A DNA stretch of 24,000 nucleotides from Candidatus Caldarchaeum subterraneum (GCA_000270325.1 BA000048.1:320080-344079); one strand, 5' to 3'. Counted from the stretch's first letter, positions 13,280 to 23,803 are shown. Program-made: numbers and translations. The notes: generated by a model not told the origin, from the sequence alone.

Positions 13280-13364
13280 TGCGGGGGGTGGGATTTGAAC
13301 CCACGAACCCCTTCGGGACAGGGGCCTGAACCCTGCGCCGTTGACCAGGCTTGGCGACCCCCGC
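13280..13364 (-). tRNA. tRNA-Leu (anticodon CAG), class II with long variable arm, no intron, CCA not encoded
   Basis: Reverse strand reads GCGGGGG-UC-GCCAAGCCUGGUCAACGGC-G-CAGGG-UUCAGGC-CCCUG-UCCCGAAGGGGUUC-GUGGG-UUCAAAU-CCCAC-CCCCCGC-A. The 7-bp acceptor stem is all G-C. The anticodon loop is UU-CAG-GC, the variable arm is 14 nt, the T-loop is canonical UUCAAAU, and the discriminator is A. Confidence 0.92.
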
Positions 13365-17286: not shown

Positions 17287-17832
17287 CTACTTGTTCCAGA
17301 GGTCGACGGTTGAGGCGTGGTAGTAGACCACCTCGTTGCGTCTATCCAGAACAGCCACGACAGCTACTTTATCCATGGCTCTGCAAGACCTGACGAGCGA
17401 AATAAGCTCGTCCACCGACACGCTTTCACCCTCATACAGGGGAATAACCAGATATTTAGCAGGCTTCGCCGGATACTCGCCTCTCTCGAAAACCCTGAAC
17501 CTTAGCTTGGGGCCGAACCCCTCCTTCACCACATAACGTCTCTTACGCAAATCCATGTAGATAACGTAGTCCCGCCAAAGGTTGTGGTCACGCTCAGCGA
17601 AGAAGCTAAGCAGCTCACTGAAGCCGAGCTTCCTCCCAGACCGGTAAACCTCCGCCTTGCCATGGTTTACAAGGTAAAGCGTTTCAACCTGGCTGAAGAA
17701 ATATCGTTTCTCACCCCGCATATCGCCGTAGCCACGTTCCCTGAACCAGCCTAGGTCCCCCTCGACGAAAACAACTTCGCCATCATTCAACAACTCGAGG
17801 CTTGCAGCCACGCTGACTACTTCCTCGCCCAA
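17287..17832 (-). CDS. endA: tRNA-splicing endonuclease family subunit (probably the non-catalytic/structural subunit of a heterotetrameric enzyme)
   Basis: 181-aa ORF that aligns by eye with M. jannaschii EndA: LYLVNHGKAEV, YMDLRKRRYVVKEG, FRVFERG, KYLVIPL, LVRSCRAMDKVAVVAVLDRRNEVVYY. Positions equivalent to the catalytic Tyr and His read Phe and Pro, while the Lys is retained. TTG start is ~28 nt from the TATATATA box. Confidence 0.8.
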   Translation of the reverse strand: MGEEVVSVAASLELLNDGEVVFVEGDLGWFRERGYGDMRGEKRYFFSQVETLYLVNHGKAEVYRSGRKLGFSELLSFFAERDHNLWRDYVIYMDLRKRRYVVKEGFGPKLRFRVFERGEYPAKPAKYLVIPLYEGESVSVDELISLVRSCRAMDKVAVVAVLDRRNEVVYYHASTVDLWNK

Positions 17833-17859
17833 CCCCGAAACAGGTTAGGAAGCCTACTC

Positions 17860-17867
17860 TATATATA
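17860..17867. promoter_or_regulatory. Palindromic TATATATA box in the 53-bp divergent spacer between endA-like and the first gene of the MoxR cluster
   Basis: Only AT-rich element in 17833-17885. It lies 28 nt from the endA TTG (17832) and 19-22 nt from TTG 17886 on the plus strand. This spacing fits near-leaderless transcripts in both directions. Confidence 0.45.
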
Positions 17868-17885
17868 CATACAGAAACGGCATAT

Positions 17886-18662
17886 TTGATAAAGCATAAG
17901 AAAAGGCTGTTTGGAGTATGGTTGGTGAAGAATCCTAGAGCCGTCCTTTTACTGGCTGTCGTTGCGCTTCTGACAGGGTTTAGCCTCTTCGAGATAGTGC
18001 CACCTATCTCGACCAGTTCTCTGCAGTTTGACATAAGGTTGAGCGAGGCCCCGGCCCGCCCCTACATACTCAGGGTAAGAGTTGAGCAAAAGCCTGTAGA
18101 GGGGTTCGCCGCCGTCCCTGTTCCAAGGGTTCTCGTATCTCTCGACAACTTCACCACCGTCACAAACCTAAGCGGCTACGCTTTCTTCACAACAACACCC
18201 GGCAAACACGTCATATCTGTCGCATCCACCACAGCCACTCTCCCAACCTATGCAGTAGATGTAGAGGTGACGACAAGGATAACCGAGCTGGTTATTAGAT
18301 TCGTGGAGACAAGGCTCAGCCTACAGTCCTTGGACGTGGTGATGGACACATCAACCCAGACAACATACGTCACAACCACCTACACACCGCCAGTCAACAG
18401 CAGCCTCTACGTGGGAAAACCCTATCTAACCTACATCGACCAAAATAACTATCTCAAACGACACATAGGCGAGGACACAGTTTCATACCTTCCCGGCCCC
18501 ATTCCACAATACAGAGGCCCATTCAACGAGATAAAAACAGGCGAAACTCTTCAACCCTACACAGCATCCGTGTCAATCGAGGGTCTCGTTCAGCTAGTGA
18601 TTCTTAAGGAGAGCTTTATCCCAGCATTCTACGTCGAGACGCAGCTAACAAAACGGGAGTGA
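17886..18662 (+). CDS. Hypothetical membrane-anchored, Thr-rich beta-type ectodomain protein (cluster gene A)
   Basis: 258-aa ORF with an N-terminal signal-anchor (KNPRAVLLLAVVALLTGFSLF) and three N-x-S/T sequons (NFT, NLS, NSS). VLVSLDNFTTVTNLSGYAFFTTTPGKHVISV weakly resembles carboxypeptidase-regulatory-like beta-sandwich repeats. No family recognised. An alternative start at GTG 17925 is preceded by GGAG (17913-17916). Confidence 0.6.
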   Translation: MIKHKKRLFGVWLVKNPRAVLLLAVVALLTGFSLFEIVPPISTSSLQFDIRLSEAPARPYILRVRVEQKPVEGFAAVPVPRVLVSLDNFTTVTNLSGYAFFTTTPGKHVISVASTTATLPTYAVDVEVTTRITELVIRFVETRLSLQSLDVVMDTSTQTTYVTTTYTPPVNSSLYVGKPYLTYIDQNNYLKRHIGEDTVSYLPGPIPQYRGPFNEIKTGETLQPYTASVSIEGLVQLVILKESFIPAFYVETQLTKRE

Positions 18663-18669
18663 AAGGGAA

Positions 18670-19119
18670 ATGGAGTCTCTCCTATACAACGTCTCGTTCT
18701 GGCTCATGCTAAACATCTTCCTAGTCGCAGCCATCGTCAGCCTCGTCCTCGTCAACCAATCCAGGTCCAAAAACAAACAACCGCCCAACTCATCACAACA
18801 AATCATAACCCTGAAGGAAGAAGAGGAACTATTCAAACAGTTGCTGCAGAAAGGTGAAAAAAGAGATGCCGTCGTCAAAGTTTTTCCACAGGTCTTTAAA
18901 AAAATATGCAAAACTGCAAACGTTGAGACAAGAGGCTACACCTTCAGGGAGGTCCTCAACTCGGGCCGCATCCCACAGACCTTTGCAGCGTATCTGTCCA
19001 GTATGTATGAGGTTTTTGAGCCCGTGAGGTATGGGGAGATGAAGCCTACGGAGGAGACGCTTGCCAAATTCGAGGAGAGTTTACACAGGCTTTCGGAGGA
19101 ATTCTGGTATGATGGTTGA
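18670..19119 (+). CDS. Single-pass membrane protein with DUF4129-like C-terminal domain (cluster gene B)
   Basis: 149-aa ORF with an N-terminal TM helix (VSFWLMLNIFLVAAIVSLVLV). GYTFREVL...LSSMYEVFEPVRYGEMKPTEETL matches the DUF4129 pattern (TxRE ... YE..RYG + acidic tail). It lies 7 nt after gene A, with GGGAG/AGGGA upstream. Confidence 0.6.
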   Translation: MESLLYNVSFWLMLNIFLVAAIVSLVLVNQSRSKNKQPPNSSQQIITLKEEEELFKQLLQKGEKRDAVVKVFPQVFKKICKTANVETRGYTFREVLNSGRIPQTFAAYLSSMYEVFEPVRYGEMKPTEETLAKFEESLHRLSEEFWYDG

Positions 19120-19381
19120 AAATGCTTTTTTCATACTGCTGGCGTTGATGCTTGCGGGAGCATTATCGCTTCTGGCTATTCCACGTGAAAAGAAAAGGAA
19201 AGATGTTGCTCGGGGTGAGGGTGTGGTGCTTGACCAATACGCGGATTTGGTGAAACTGGTGATGGATGGTGAGGTGAGGGAAGCGTTGAAAAGAGTTAGG
19301 AGATATGTTGAGAAGGAGACCGACACTGAGAGAAGGCGGCTGCTGAAGAATGTGGAGGCTGAGTTGAGAAAACATGTCTAA
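19109..19381 (+). CDS. 90-aa single-pass membrane protein with highly charged helical tail (cluster gene C)
   Basis: ATG 19109 is preceded by GGAGG (19095-19099, 9-nt spacer) and overlaps the end of gene B by 11 nt. Sequence: MMVENAFFILLALMLAGALSLLAIPREKKRKDV...REALKRVRRYVEKETDTERRRLLKNVEAELRKHV. The track ORF opens earlier at TTG 19061, inside gene B. No family recognised. Confidence 0.5.
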   Translation: MMVENAFFILLALMLAGALSLLAIPREKKRKDVARGEGVVLDQYADLVKLVMDGEVREALKRVRRYVEKETDTERRRLLKNVEAELRKHV

Positions 19382-20330
19382 TCTGTTTGCTGCTATGCTT
19401 GGAGAAGGTGTAAAGGCTGAGGTAGGTAAGGTAGTGGTGGGGATGCATGACGCCATAGAGTCCCTGATTATCGCGTTGTTGACAGGTGGCCACGTCATAA
19501 TGGAAGGCGTTCCAGGCCTCGCGAAAACTCTTCTCGCAAAATCATTCGCCATGTCCCTGGGACTAAGCTTCAAGAGAATACAGTTCACGACCGACATACT
19601 TCCATCAGACATAATCGGCGGCCTTGTCCTCAACAGAAAAACAGGCGAGCTGGAGTTTAAGCCTGGCCCGGTTTTCGCCAACGTGGTTCTGATAGATGAG
19701 ATAAACAGGGCTCCTCCGAGAAGCCAGTCGGCGTTGCTCGAGGCTATGCAGGAGAGGCAGGTGACGGTCGAGGGCGTGACCTACAAGTTGCCTGAGCCTT
19801 TTCTCGTCATCGCCACACAGAACCCAGTGGAGCTTGAGGGCACCTTTCCTCTTCCCGAAGCAGAGATAGACCGCTTCATGATGAGAGTAATAGTCTCCTA
19901 CCCAAGCCGCGAAGAGGAAATCCAAATTCTCAAGATGAGGGACATGCTCGGCGAAGATATCCCTGTCCAACCCGTGATAACCAGCGACCTGCTCAACCTC
20001 GCCATGGACGAAGTGAGGCATGTCAGGGTAGTCCCCGAGGTATTGGAGTACATCGTTGAAATCGTCATGAGAAGTAGGAAAGACACTCGGCTGATGCTTG
20101 GAGCGAGTCCGAGAGCTGAGATTGCTCTTCTATACGCGGCCAAGGCTTTGGCTGCCCTGAACAACCGTGTATACGTTATCCCCGATGACGTTAAGAGGGT
20201 GTGCTACCGTGTGCTCAATCATCGTCTCATGCCTAAGCCCGAGTACATCGACCTCTCCAAGAAAACCGACTACGGATTCGTGGAGAAAGTCATTGAGGAA
20301 TATTTGTTGGAGACAGAGGTTCCGATATGA
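19374..20330 (+). CDS. MoxR-family AAA+ ATPase (MRP-type)
   Basis: 318 aa. Walker A is GVPGLAKT. Walker B/sensor region is VVLIDEINRAPPRSQSALLEAMQERQVT, followed by FLVIATQNPVELEGTFPLPEAEIDRF and the C-terminal lid GASPRAEIALLYAAKALAAL. Overlaps gene C by 8 nt. Confidence 0.95.
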   Translation: MSNLFAAMLGEGVKAEVGKVVVGMHDAIESLIIALLTGGHVIMEGVPGLAKTLLAKSFAMSLGLSFKRIQFTTDILPSDIIGGLVLNRKTGELEFKPGPVFANVVLIDEINRAPPRSQSALLEAMQERQVTVEGVTYKLPEPFLVIATQNPVELEGTFPLPEAEIDRFMMRVIVSYPSREEEIQILKMRDMLGEDIPVQPVITSDLLNLAMDEVRHVRVVPEVLEYIVEIVMRSRKDTRLMLGASPRAEIALLYAAKALAALNNRVYVIPDDVKRVCYRVLNHRLMPKPEYIDLSKKTDYGFVEKVIEEYLLETEVPI

Positions 20331-21583
20331 AGCTAACAGCCCAAGGCTACAAAACACTCGTCTCCATGTTTATCATAGTGTTTTTCGCGTCAACTGTCTC
20401 GGTGTACAGGGCTTTGAGCCTCTCAATCTACATTGTGGGGGTTTTCATCCCTCTCTATTGTTTTTTCGCCGCCTCATCTCTAAGAATGCTTAGCCAGAAC
20501 GATTTTCTTTTTTCTCGACATGTTAGGAGAGCGCTTTTGCGAAAAGGTGAACATGCTGAGGTGCGTGTTAAGGTTGAGAACAAGTCGGGTCGAAGAGTTA
20601 GAGTCCGTGTTTTAGAACGTATAGACGGACTCAAGGTTGTTGAGGGTAGTGTTCAAGCTGAAAGAAACTTGGCCCCAGATGAACTCCTCGAACTCTCCTA
20701 CACTGTCACCTCCCATGGACGCGGCATAGGTCTCCTCGGGCCGCTGGTAGTGCATGTCTTGGACGACTACGGCATGGTCTACAAAGAATTCACGCTGGGA
20801 GAAGAGGTGAAGATTGTTTTCACGGAACACGTCATAGGCCAGCCGAAGCTCTCTGACGCGGTAAAGACGGTGTTCCCCACCCCCTATGCAGGAACAGGCT
20901 CCTCCCATGAATACGGTGTAGACGACATTTTCCGCGAGATAACAAGGTATGAAGAGGGGCAGCCGCTAAAAGCCGTTGATTGGAGAAGAACAGCGCGAGA
21001 AAACGGGGAAATATTTGTTCGACGGTTTGATAAGCAAAACCGTCTCCGCATCTGTCTCGTGCTTGACTACAGCCATGGCAACATCTTGGGCAACCCATCG
21101 CTTCTAGACTCAGTCGTTGGAGCAGTATCTACGCTTGCCTCATCTGTTCTGGAGCGAGGTGACTCGGTAACCATAGTGGTCCCGGGCGCAAGAGAAGGTG
21201 TAGTTAAGGCGACTGGGCTGAGGGATTATTTCAGGCTATTGACCTTTCTCTCCACAGTAGCGCCAGTGTCGCAATACAGGATTGTAGATTGGTTGGAATA
21301 TTTGCATGGTTTTGACGCCGTCTTCATGGTGGGCAGGTTCGCAAACCTTGACGAAGCCTCTCTAAAGACCGTGGCTGAGAAGGTTAGGCTGTACGGCGGC
21401 GTCTTATACTTGCTCGTCCCAACCTTGGAAAACGTGACGAGACCTGCGAAGGCATTGGAGGTTCTTGAACAGGCCCGTGTCCAGAGGCTTCGAAAAATCT
21501 ACGGTCATGTCTATTTGGTTAGGCAGACGGATTTGCTGAACTATCTTGTTCACCTCCATAGAAGCTTGAGGATGATGATATGA
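20327..21583 (+). CDS. DUF58-domain protein (degenerate vWA fold) with two N-terminal TM helices
   Basis: 418 aa. The DUF58 signature is FREITRYEEGQPLKAVDWRRTARENGEIFVRRF, followed by ICLVLDYSHGN (a DxSxS-like MIDAS remnant reading DYSHG). ATGA overlap with the MoxR stop. GAGGT lies 6 nt upstream. Confidence 0.9.
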   Translation: MKLTAQGYKTLVSMFIIVFFASTVSVYRALSLSIYIVGVFIPLYCFFAASSLRMLSQNDFLFSRHVRRALLRKGEHAEVRVKVENKSGRRVRVRVLERIDGLKVVEGSVQAERNLAPDELLELSYTVTSHGRGIGLLGPLVVHVLDDYGMVYKEFTLGEEVKIVFTEHVIGQPKLSDAVKTVFPTPYAGTGSSHEYGVDDIFREITRYEEGQPLKAVDWRRTARENGEIFVRRFDKQNRLRICLVLDYSHGNILGNPSLLDSVVGAVSTLASSVLERGDSVTIVVPGAREGVVKATGLRDYFRLLTFLSTVAPVSQYRIVDWLEYLHGFDAVFMVGRFANLDEASLKTVAEKVRLYGGVLYLLVPTLENVTRPAKALEVLEQARVQRLRKIYGHVYLVRQTDLLNYLVHLHRSLRMMI

Positions 21584-22293
21584 TGGATAAGCTTTTGAGG
21601 GCGGTGGCACTTCTACCCCCCGTTGTCCTCACATTATCAGTCTTGTCAATGCTGGATGTTTCAAACAGTTTCGTGTTTGTAGGGTTTTTCTCCCTTCTTT
21701 TCATCTCTGCGACAGACCGGTTCAAATGGGCAGGCATAATATTGGTCTATGTTCCCGCGGCCTACACCGTCTCGCTTCTGCTGACAGGCGTTGTTTCACC
21801 ATTTCTCGGCCTGGCCGCTGGCTACATAGTTTCTGCACCCGCCGTCTTCGCGATATCAGCATACAGAAGCAATCTATTCACTGGATTGGTTGGAGGCTAC
21901 TACGCGTCATATGTTTTCGCCCTTCTCCTAAACAACGTAACGTCAAGCGGTGTTGTGAGGCCCGAGAGATTGTTCATCATGCTTGTCCAAAACATCCTCG
22001 GCCTTTTCTCAACAGGGACAGTCAACATAACTCCCGCAAACCCAGAACCCGAGCTCATTTTCACGGTTCTCACAGCTTTAGCCTCCTTTGCACTCCTCAC
22101 ATCCTTCGCGGGCAATCAACTACAAAAAATAAACGAACCCTTCCTGAAAACCCTCATAACCTCACTAGCCCTGATGAGTCTCAGCATCTTCGTAGGCCAG
22201 CATTCGCCAGTGTTGACCCCCTATTTCCTACTGGCTTCATTTGTTCTGCTCACGGCTGCTTTAATGCTTTGGTTGCGCACCTCCCATGAATAG
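21580..22293 (+). CDS. Hypothetical polytopic membrane protein, ~7 TM (cluster gene F)
   Basis: 237-aa, almost entirely hydrophobic ORF. ATGA overlap with the DUF58 stop and GAGGA 7 nt upstream. No family recognised. Confidence 0.7.
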   Translation: MMDKLLRAVALLPPVVLTLSVLSMLDVSNSFVFVGFFSLLFISATDRFKWAGIILVYVPAAYTVSLLLTGVVSPFLGLAAGYIVSAPAVFAISAYRSNLFTGLVGGYYASYVFALLLNNVTSSGVVRPERLFIMLVQNILGLFSTGTVNITPANPEPELIFTVLTALASFALLTSFAGNQLQKINEPFLKTLITSLALMSLSIFVGQHSPVLTPYFLLASFVLLTAALMLWLRTSHE

Positions 22294-23803
22294 AGCACTG
22301 TATCTATTTGTGATTGCATTTCTGGCTGTCCCGTCTCAAGGACAGAGCATCGAGCCATATTGGCTAGTCGGGTTTGACGGCGACATCATGCTCCCGTTTC
22401 TCGATAGAGGTGTGCTCGAATGCGGTGTGGGTGAAAGTCTCGCGGTGAAACTTGTTGGCCGAGACGGATTCGTCGCTCTCGTTTCGCCTAATGGCCTAAG
22501 TGAAAATGTTTTTTTACGCGATGGGGAGAGAACGGTTCTCAGGAGGTTTGGGCCCGGTGACGCGGGAAACTGGACGCTTGTGGCCGACACCGGTCAGACA
22601 CTCACTCTACAGGTCAGGCCACCGTTAGCGAAGCCGCCTGTGCAGGTTTTGGCTAGGTTTGAGGGACCCTTTGTTGTCTTGACGGTGTCAACATCTCCAA
22701 ACACTTATGCGCTTTTCTTAGATGGACGTGGGGAGGGAGAAGTTGTCGCTGCAGGCTCTTCGATAGAGCTTGGTTTGAAGGGATTCAACGATACGAGGGT
22801 GAGAGTGGAGATAATAAGGAGGGAGCCGACAATAAGATACGGCGGGCTGCTCGACGGCTTGCCCTACACCATGCAGCTGGACCCCTTATCTGTCAACACA
22901 ATTGTAGAGGGCAGGAGGATAAATGACTCGACGGTGTTCAGCGTGAGATTACCTGCCGATGGTGAGCAGGTTTCAGGCTTGAGGAAGATGGGTTTAGGGC
23001 CTCATCTCATCCGTCTCTACTCGGTCTCAGACAAACGGATTCTCTTGGAGAGGGAGGTTGTGGTTGTGCCAGAATCGATGAAAAGCTTCACGGGGTTGAG
23101 TCGTGCTGTCCGTGCGGATGTGTGGGCCGCGGCCGCCAAAAACTTCACAATCCTTGTCGGGGACGAGGCTGGCAACCTCTGGATTCTCCAAATCAGGCCG
23201 CCGATAGCCTTCATCCGCTTGTATGACCAAATTCATTCGAGATACGTGAAAGGTGTGGGTGTGGCTTTAGCCGATGGACAGGCCCAGAATTTAGATGAAT
23301 GGACAGGGATAATCTTCGTCAACAGGATTGAGATAAATAACTATGGGAACAACAGCAGCTACAGCCCGTCTACAGAAACAAATGTGTCGCTTAACTTCAA
23401 CGCAACATCGCTGACACTGCCCCTTACGGTGACGGCGGGAGACAGGGTGACTCTAAACCTCCAGCTCCATCAAGCCCATATCACACTTATCTGGCCCAAC
23501 GGCACTACATACAAGGGCCCCGCCACTTTGACAATCAACTCGGCGAAATTTACAAACGCAACAGCGCTGCTTCTTCCCGTCGACAAATATGTTGTAAGAG
23601 CAGATAACCCGCCAAGCTTCTCCAGCAACGTTTACACCTTGACAGCCGACACTACCTGGACAATAATCATATTGGATAACCCTGCTGGTGTCGCGGGCTT
23701 TAGGGCGTCCGCCGTTCTTCTCACAGCCCTCCTAGTATACACCGTTTTTAGACTGCGTAAGACCTTTTATCGAGCGGACCTGTTTAGACGTGAGCAAAGA
23801 TGA
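22286..23803 (+). CDS. Hypothetical type-I surface glycoprotein: signal peptide, ~440-aa ectodomain, C-terminal TM anchor (cluster gene G)
   Basis: 505 aa. Signal peptide MNRALYLFVIAFLAVPSQG and C-terminal TM AVLLTALLVYTVF followed by the basic tail RLRKTFYRADLFRREQR. There are ten N-x-S/T sequons and an internal repeat N[WF]T..V.D..G..L.LQ[VI]RPP[LI]A at aa 95-115 and 286-308. Only one Cys. Overlaps gene F by 8 nt. No family recognised. Confidence 0.7.
   Translation: MNRALYLFVIAFLAVPSQGQSIEPYWLVGFDGDIMLPFLDRGVLECGVGESLAVKLVGRDGFVALVSPNGLSENVFLRDGERTVLRRFGPGDAGNWTLVADTGQTLTLQVRPPLAKPPVQVLARFEGPFVVLTVSTSPNTYALFLDGRGEGEVVAAGSSIELGLKGFNDTRVRVEIIRREPTIRYGGLLDGLPYTMQLDPLSVNTIVEGRRINDSTVFSVRLPADGEQVSGLRKMGLGPHLIRLYSVSDKRILLEREVVVVPESMKSFTGLSRAVRADVWAAAAKNFTILVGDEAGNLWILQIRPPIAFIRLYDQIHSRYVKGVGVALADGQAQNLDEWTGIIFVNRIEINNYGNNSSYSPSTETNVSLNFNATSLTLPLTVTAGDRVTLNLQLHQAHITLIWPNGTTYKGPATLTINSAKFTNATALLLPVDKYVVRADNPPSFSSNVYTLTADTTWTIIILDNPAGVAGFRASAVLLTALLVYTVFRLRKTFYRADLFRREQR

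Follow-up and report, generated by a model that had tools for sequence, protein, structure and literature searches.

Seven contiguous genes (A to G; 17922-23803, plus strand) of Candidatus Caldarchaeum subterraneum, a member of the Caldarchaeales (formerly Aigarchaeota) and not a classical crenarchaeon, encode a MoxR AAA+ ATPase (D), a DUF58 protein (E), and five membrane-bound or exported partners (A, B, C, F, and G). They lie in a 24,000-nucleotide stretch of DNA (GCA_000270325.1, BA000048.1:320080-344079), referred to here as the window; cluster anatomy was taken from an open reading frame (ORF) listing of this 24-kb window, and coordinates are window positions unless another locus is named. 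Because D-E-F-G recurs with differing flanking genes, it is a module that moves as a block, found in at least six genomic contexts; A-B-C is an optional, ancestral-looking extension of it. We infer, with about even confidence, that all seven genes work together as a single functional module, in which MoxR and DUF58, tethered to the membrane, act as a chaperone or remodelling unit dedicated to a lineage-specific envelope complex.

The genes are tightly packed, with junctions of +7, -11, -8, -4, -4, and -8 nt. The ORF listing thereby reproduces the seven same-strand ORFs and the spacing given in a preliminary description of this DNA, which had been made from the sequence alone. Almost identical junctions are kept in seven other Caldarchaeum genomes.

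Conservation of the module across genomic contexts

Profile hidden Markov models (HMMs) of A to G, built from eight Caldarchaeum orthologues, were searched in the neighbourhoods of ever more distant MoxR homologues. An exact-sequence look-up of the MoxR protein recovered the same locus on several assembled contigs, and all seven genes are present in the same order in seven other Caldarchaeum species genomes, with the identity of the accessory proteins falling to 37–50%. The full A-G set, accompanied by the same flanking genes as in the window, occurs in loci L006-L013 and L015, of which L013 and L015 are more distant Caldarchaeaceae-like contigs. Two further loci carry the set between wholly different flanks. 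L020 has all of A to G (A, 4.6e-15; B, 4.5e-19; C, 2e-3; E, 3e-38; F, 2e-19; G, 4e-21); L022 has the set (A, 3e-4; B, 6.5e-22; E, 3e-24; F, 2e-7; G, 2e-40) with a 54-aa transmembrane (TM) protein in place of C.

A reduced form, consisting of a small TM protein followed by MoxR, DUF58, F, and G, is found under three further sets of flanks (L014/L021, L016, and L019). Its small protein has 112–131 aa, with a TM helix and a basic tail; homology of this protein to B or C was considered and rejected, since the TM helix alone aligns. The full set is thus present in at least three genomic contexts and the reduced form in at least three more, all of them in the Caldarchaeales/Nitrososphaerota. The preliminary description had proposed profiling gene neighbourhoods for co-occurrence of A to G in this order, and the order is kept both in related genomes and in different contexts.

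These neighbourhoods bear directly on whether the genes form a unit at all. In a compact genome, A to G could be held together by inherited synteny, with D-E as the sole true pair. The housekeeping flanks (UbiA, the tRNA-splicing endonuclease, and fructose-1,6-bisphosphatase (FBPase)) are indeed equally syntenic across the Caldarchaeaceae, and the 4-nt overlap between FBPase and G is the same as the overlaps inside the cluster. However, D-E-F-G stays together under at least six sets of flanks, with A-B-(C) alongside in three of them, whereas the upstream UbiA and tRNA-splicing endonuclease genes and FBPase do not travel with the module; moreover, gene order and near-identical junctions are kept at 37–50% protein identity. 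Inherited synteny is largely refuted for D to G by these observations, and as an explanation for the cluster as a whole we consider it quite unlikely.

Between the more distant Caldarchaeum species, the accessory proteins share 32–57% identity, compared with 73–78% for MoxR. The faster divergence of the accessory proteins is what would be expected if these were clients or adaptors, specific to each lineage, of a motor that is itself conserved.

Additional genes adjoin the module in some lineages. In the reduced, Calditenuaceae-like loci (L014, 12607-14728; L021, 10512-12655), G is followed by an ABC-permease-like protein (BPD_transp_1) and then by a protein of 229–230 aa that begins with a signal peptide and is anchored by a C-terminal TM segment; this protein may add to the ectodomain components of the cluster or stand in for one of them. 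Upstream of the full cluster in L020 (151-3678) is a gene for a protein of 1175 aa that has a C-terminal TM helix as well as a signal peptide and weakly matches ThuA and DUF7743. DUF4350, a family encoded in related archaeal clusters, shares its GATase1-like fold class with ThuA, and the 1175-aa protein could be a DUF4350-like partner in that lineage.

The MoxR-DUF58 pair and its membrane and surface partners

D (19374-20330, plus strand) is a cytoplasmic MRP-type MoxR AAA+ ATPase of 318 aa. It matches AAA_3 (PF07726; 3.6e-62, 208.5 bits against a cut-off of 27) and AAA_lid_2 (1.7e-19, 69.7 bits) in Pfam, its translation contains Walker A (GVPGLAKT) and Walker B (LIDEINRA) motifs, and its identity across the genus is 73–94%. 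According to the definition that PMC12067865 attributes to Snider and Houry (2006), the MRP subfamily is recognised by an adjacent DUF58 gene; E (PF01882) begins 4 nt before the D stop codon.

D also matches bpMoxR (PF20030; 5e-11, 42.5 bits). Together with the fast evolution of G and its confinement to one lineage, this match could place the cluster among the MoxR-vWA systems for biological conflict or defence against viruses, and G would then be a fast-evolving surface sensor or decoy. Yet the bpMoxR match is far weaker than that to AAA_3 and represents general MoxR similarity. A β-propeller, which would be the third component of a MoxR-vWA-β-propeller ternary conflict system, was not found in A to G, nor was any effector or nuclease domain, and PADLOC returned zero matches for the seven proteins. 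The locus is stably syntenic at a fixed position amid housekeeping genes rather than being a patchy, variable island, and a conflict function is, in our estimate, extremely unlikely.

E (20327-21583, plus strand; 418 aa) matches DUF58 (PF01882) at 2e-7 and 30.9 bits, against a gathering cut-off of 23.4, and PF01882 is detected in all E homologues found. Pfam therefore supports both identifications made in the preliminary description, of D as MoxR and of E as DUF58. In an AlphaFold2 (AF2) model of E (mean predicted local distance difference test (pLDDT) score 71), a TM hairpin at the N-terminus leads into a β-sandwich (residues 60–166), after which come a loop of low confidence that carries the DUF58 signature YEEGQPLKAVDWRRTAR and an α/β domain (residues 241–417). 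In Foldseek, the α/β domain matches the vWA domains of TEM8, CMG2, and Rpn10 (TMt 0.5–0.67), and the sandwich matches TRAP-β/CARDB. On this model, the TM hairpin keeps the β-sandwich and the vWA fold next to the membrane, on its cytoplasmic side. Comparison of the E profile with PDB sequences identified no relative with a solved structure, and a word-indexed homologue search with E returned six clusters, all from Caldarchaeum.

The metal ion-dependent adhesion site (MIDAS) of E (residues 247–251; 21065-21079) reads DYSHG, and an intact DxSxS...T...D site is not present. The DxSxS motif is intact in L013, L014, L015, L017, and L019 (DCSYS, DCSPS, and DCSSS among distant relatives), and L016 has DCSPE. 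Within Caldarchaeum the site is variable (DYSHG, DCSLP, DCTVS, and DCSRA); this erosion suggests that metal-dependent binding has been relaxed or lost in the genus. The same erosion counts against a function in metal-cofactor insertion or enzyme activation, as for NorQ/NorD, CoxD/E/F, CbbQ/O, and the chelatases, with a membrane or extracytoplasmic enzyme as the target. The pairing of MoxR with a vWA fold is consistent with such a function, as are weak matches of D to the chelatase subunits BchD and BchI. Nevertheless, the module is conserved without a gene for an enzyme or metalloprotein, the erosion of its MIDAS is seen both in the window and genus-wide, and its β-sandwich ectodomain and TM partners are without conserved metal ligands, so that we regard metal insertion as very unlikely.

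For the partner proteins, hydropathy and the positive-inside rule agree on topology: the globular parts of B, C, and E are cytoplasmic, and those of A and G lie outside. Both lines also agree with the earlier statement that all products except D are membrane-bound or exported. Domain scans at Pfam and NCBIfam thresholds covered the window proteins and every orthologue, and A, C, F, and G fall below every threshold, in keeping with the difficulty previously reported in assigning these four to families. Among the orthologues of A and G there are sporadic β-sandwich matches only (CarboxypepD_reg, PEGA, DUF2846, and DUF4397), and no orthologue of F has any Pfam match.

A (17922-18662, plus strand; 246 aa) has a signal anchor (residues 8–26) followed by an extracellular, β-rich domain; with 12.6% Thr overall, it conforms to its initial portrayal as a signal-anchored, Thr-rich ectodomain. 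The motif TNxxGYAxFxxxPGKH corresponds to a CarboxypepD_reg/transthyretin-like β-sandwich, and there are weak, below-threshold matches to the β-sandwich families CarboxypepD_reg, EMC7, and DUF2846. Homologues of A are present in L006-L013, L015, L020, and L022. A type IV pilin-like identity, with a class III signal (R-A↓V), was ruled out, since the orthologues have T, V, or I at position -1.

B (18670-19119, plus strand; 149 aa) is predicted to have a single N-out TM helix (residues 10–28) and a cytoplasmic DUF4129 domain. On its own, B matches DUF4129 (PF13559) at 0.023 and 15.2 bits, under the cut-off of 24.8; the family is matched by five of eight B orthologues (best 2.1e-5). The B profile aligns over 120 columns (hhalign probability 95%, E 4e-8) with a TgpA-like transglutaminase/DUF4129 protein of 1564 aa encoded in L017 (Jordarchaeales), and the aligned region (residues 1431–1554; hmmsearch 1.4e-6) is the last TM helix and DUF4129 tail of that protein. 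The original designation of B as a TM plus DUF4129-like protein is borne out by these matches, and B appears from them to be a free-standing remnant of the TM+DUF4129 tail of TgpA-type proteins.

This homology is also a link to a degradative function, that is, membrane-proximal quality control in which substrates recruited by the vWA protein would be unfolded by MoxR and then cleaved by a peptidase; in the present cluster, the peptidase would have been lost or exchanged for an unrecognised one (e.g., in F). Such a model has been published for MoxR-vWA-transglutaminase operons, which were proposed to be membrane-proximal degradation systems (Zhang and Aravind, 2012; PMC3495828), and the nearest outgroup clusters encode a Transglut_core+DUF4129 protein. 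However, Transglut_core (PF01841), present in outgroup L017, has no match in A to G at E<=1; no other peptidase domain was found in A to G; and there is no invariant Cys or His among the conserved residues of F. The model also leaves unexplained the retention of two large ectodomain proteins, and we judge it unlikely to apply here.

C (19109-19381, plus strand; 90 aa), which shares 11 nt with B and 8 nt with D, has a TM helix (residues 6–24) with six Lys/Arg residues immediately after it, and a highly charged, helical tail predicted to be cytoplasmic. Orthologues of C are limited to the Caldarchaeaceae, apart from the weak match in L020, and its position in other lineages is taken by a non-homologous TM + basic-tail protein of 54–131 aa. 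Residues 47–78 of B (18808-18903) align weakly with residues 40–69 of C (19226-19315; hhalign probability 69%, 30 columns), and C might have arisen by partial duplication of B.

F (21580-22293, plus strand; 237 aa) is a polytopic membrane protein with approximately seven TM helices that belongs to no known family and contains the invariant motif PFLGLAAGY. In L013-L016 and L019-L022, its homologues (1e-45 to 2e-7) are without exception encoded between DUF58 and G.

G (22286-23803, plus strand; 505 aa) begins with a signal peptide, continues into approximately four tandem β-sandwich (Ig-like) domains, and ends in a TM anchor followed by a basic tail. It carries 10 N-X-S/T sequons, compared with 0 in D; abundant glycosylation sequons mark the exposed β-sandwich ectodomains of both A and G. 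The preliminary description had called G a glycoprotein with a signal peptide and C-terminal anchor; the layout and the sequons stand, and glycosylation itself is predicted. The AF2 model of G (pLDDT 64) is all-β and gave generic tandem-Ig or pilin matches only in Foldseek. An exhaustive profile search of 1.84 billion representative proteins recovered 35 relatives, nearly all of 465–540 aa, and no tie to any larger family; across the G family, no Pfam family is matched consistently, the matches being sporadic and to β-sandwich families only. A word-indexed homologue search with G returned six clusters, all from Caldarchaeum.

Gene starts, putative promoter elements, and the 3' boundary

The start of gene A had been placed at 17886, but TTG 17922, which gives the 246-aa protein, is the most likely start codon. 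It is the start used in gene calls on five independent contigs, and GGAG occurs 9 nt upstream; it is preferred also because a TATA box centred at approximately 17863 predicts a transcript start at approximately 17890. This box, TATATATA (17860-17867, plus strand; approximately 55 nt upstream of TTG 17922), is the probable TATA element of the cluster promoter. Within the cluster region TATATA occurs at 17860-17867 alone, consistent with the earlier report of a box before the first gene only; one further copy is present in the window, at 882. TATATATA is situated in an 89-nt divergent spacer (17833-17921) between gene A and a gene for a tRNA-splicing endonuclease (17287-17832, minus strand, start at 17832). 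The box is palindromic and could be a bidirectional TATA element for these two genes.

Each of the genes A (start at 17922) to F has a Shine-Dalgarno (SD)-like site (GGAG, GGAGG, GAGGT, or GAGG) 9–20 nt before its start codon, and a start-site motif scan found none upstream of G or FBPase; the scan agrees with the sites first noted at B to F and with the lack of a clear one at G. Rfam, tRNA, and bacterial promoter and terminator scans of the cluster region gave no signal above chance. In the 24-kb window as a whole, no Rfam family reaches its gathering score; a tRNA-Leu(CAG) is located at 13280-13364 on the minus strand.

G is followed by an eighth same-strand gene, overlooked in the preliminary description, for a class V FBPase (PF01950), of which the ATG (23800) lies in a 4-nt overlap with the G stop codon and which extends past the end of the window. 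The initial picture of seven coupled genes thus holds as far as the tight packing of A to G is concerned, but packing does not set the seven apart; because FBPase overlaps G equally, a 4-nt overlap alone is no proof of functional coupling here. Inside the 3' end of G, approximately 32 nt before the FBPase ATG, is AAGACCTTTTAT (23759-23770, plus strand), a boundary feature outside the system. Its DNA is conserved in all eight Caldarchaeum loci (8/8), with an unvarying spacing to the FBPase ATG, and a similar ACTTTTATCC is present in the G-FBPase spacer of L013. AAGACCTTTTAT is probably the FBPase TATA box, embedded in the G coding sequence, and the FBPase mRNA is probably near-leaderless. FBPase is next to G only in the Caldarchaeaceae, and because of this confined adjacency and the apparent possession by FBPase of its own TATA box, the 3' limit of the unit is set at G. 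An embedded FBPase TATA box may also be the reason for the genus-wide invariance of R-K-T-F in the G cytoplasmic tail.

Farther downstream, past the window end and approximately 4.3–5.5 kb from G, L001 (14759-15983) encodes a SpoIIM-like membrane protein (weak PF01944) and a Peptidase_A24 prepilin peptidase. SpoIIM-like proteins were tied to membrane remodelling in a 2015 survey of archaea (PMC5898192).

Proposed function and comparison with known systems

Whereas the composition, topology, and block-wise conservation of the module are established by the data above, the steps of its proposed mechanism are drawn by analogy with the MoxR/vWA pairs NorQ-NorD, RavA-ViaA, and CbbQ-CbbO. The vWA domain of E would recruit a hexamer of MoxR (D) to the inner face of the membrane, where ATP hydrolysis would drive the remodelling or assembly of a complex that consists of F, G, and A. 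The part of cytoplasmic adaptors or regulators would fall to B and C, with B in the role that is played by the DUF4129 tail in TgpA-type proteins. The output would be the maturation, assembly, insertion, or turnover of a cell-surface assembly, for which a glycosylated surface protein may be the client and ATP-driven action may be exerted across the membrane. An output of this kind, in archaeal secretion or membrane remodelling, was already proposed for related clusters in 2015 (PMC5898192).

Several points weigh against the interpretation of A to G as a single remodelling unit. Co-transcription is deduced from spacing and a single TATA box only, and tight spacing is weak evidence in a compact genome, in which an unrelated housekeeping gene (FBPase) is tied to G by a 4-nt overlap. 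It is doubtful that the vWA domain of E binds substrates in a metal-dependent manner, because the MIDAS is eroded here and intact in relatives. The structure models of E and G were built from shallow alignments and are of only moderate confidence (pLDDT 71 and 64), and the sampling of genomic contexts is small (17 related loci). Furthermore, sequence cannot separate the client from the machinery.

A more specific proposal is that F, G, and A form a Caldarchaeales-specific surface structure (e.g., a SlaB-type S-layer anchor or a distinct lattice), the insertion or assembly of which would be driven from the cytoplasmic side by a MoxR hexamer docked on DUF58, B, and C. This is possible, although we would not expect it. 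If true, the module would be an AAA+-powered device for envelope assembly or secretion without a characterised counterpart, and would offer the first experimental handle on the function of a MoxR-DUF58-DUF4129 cluster in any organism.

To our knowledge, MoxR(MRP)-DUF58 clusters are among the most widespread types of prokaryotic operon still without a mechanism. In bacteria they are linked to stress tolerance, envelope integrity, and virulence. The Caldarchaeum cluster is a local variant of this widespread, known class, for which an archaeal envelope or secretion role had been proposed before. What is new is the Caldarchaeales-specific set of partners, including two unannotated families, F and G (35 representative clusters); the free TM+DUF4129 protein; and a composition without an enzymatic partner (no transglutaminase, DUF4350, extra vWA, or TPR), which makes it a minimal natural version. 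Such a version retains the motor, the vWA adaptor, a free DUF4129 protein, and the fixed pair of F and G, which may make it easier to find the client or output of the system. With the organisms uncultured and the general idea already in print, the immediate payoff is modest.

With the Bat operons of Bacteroides, Leptospira, and Borrelia (MoxR-DUF58-BatA/B-BatC-BatD), the cluster shares a MoxR-DUF58 core followed by membrane or exported partners. BatD is an all-β exported protein with a C-terminal anchor, and a protein of this kind is also among the Caldarchaeal partners. Unlike the Bat operons (for the Borrelia MoxR/vWA context, see PMC5700661), neither A to G nor 32 members of the G family have Pfam matches to VWA, TPR, or BatD. 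The PFNA operon of Bifidobacterium (pkb2-fn3-MoxR-DUF58-tgm; PMC8430577) encodes an FN3 surface protein, and is similar in having a tandem β-sandwich surface protein, fast-evolving and species-specific, beside an MRP-type MoxR, a DUF58 protein, and a DUF4129-bearing membrane protein. PFNA differs in being bacterial, in having a Ser/Thr kinase and a transglutaminase, and in the position of its FN3 protein upstream of MoxR; in Pfam scans, G and A have no sequence homology to FN3. According to a 2025 review, it is still not known what DUF58 does or how it relates to MoxR (PMC12067865).

The nearest MoxR proteins outside the Caldarchaeales (54–57% identity) are encoded in clusters of the order TgpA-like/DUF4129-DUF4350-MoxR-DUF58-polytopic protein, which were sampled in L017 (a Jordarchaeales contig) and L018 (a Desulfurococcales contig). 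As in these TgpA/YebA-type operons, DUF58 directly follows MoxR, a polytopic protein follows DUF58, and a TM-then-DUF4129 module is present. The Caldarchaeum cluster differs from them in having no Transglut_core, in having the DUF4129 module as a separate 149-aa protein, and in G, which is without a counterpart there. The claim that the usual partners are missing is correct for the window in regard to BatA/B-type vWA, TPR, and transglutaminase proteins, but it overlooked the correspondence of B to a TgpA tail and the kinship with TgpA clusters. Two closer equivalences were considered. F (237 aa) as a short form of the 422–435 aa polytopic proteins of L017 and L018 is rejected, since hhalign finds no similarity; of A and B as a split DUF4129 protein, the B half is supported, and A is unlike the L017 and L018 ectodomains by hhalign. 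None of A, F, and G is detectably similar to any of the ectodomains, DUF4350 proteins, or polytopic proteins encoded in these two clusters.

Makarova, Galperin, and Koonin (2015; PMC5898192) predicted a secretion or membrane-remodelling system from archaeal neighbourhoods of DUF4350, MoxR, Ig+vWA, and Ig-like membrane or S-layer-like proteins. The archaeal envelope system put forward in the preliminary description as a new, not yet characterised one is essentially the same prediction. The arCOG01314 (DUF4350)-associated system, itself a predicted operon without experimental characterisation, resembles the Caldarchaeum cluster in combining a MoxR/GvpN-family AAA+ ATPase, an Ig-like+vWA (DUF58) protein, extracellular Ig-like proteins, and small proteins with 2–3 TM helices. 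The MoxR, Ig-vWA, and Ig-like ectodomain set is represented here by D, E, A, and G, a match in architecture only and not an arCOG assignment. In contrast to the arCOG01314-associated system, A to G include no DUF4350/GldG-like flavodoxin-fold protein (no PF14258 match), and A, F, and G have no detectable homology to DUF1616 (pfam07760) or to the L017 and L018 DUF4350 proteins. The all-β fold of G, together with an hhalign probability of 0.2% against these L017 and L018 proteins, rules out the idea that G takes the place of DUF4350. The Caldarchaeal module is distinguished from the arCOG01314-associated system by its own F and G families and by a free-standing TM+DUF4129 protein.

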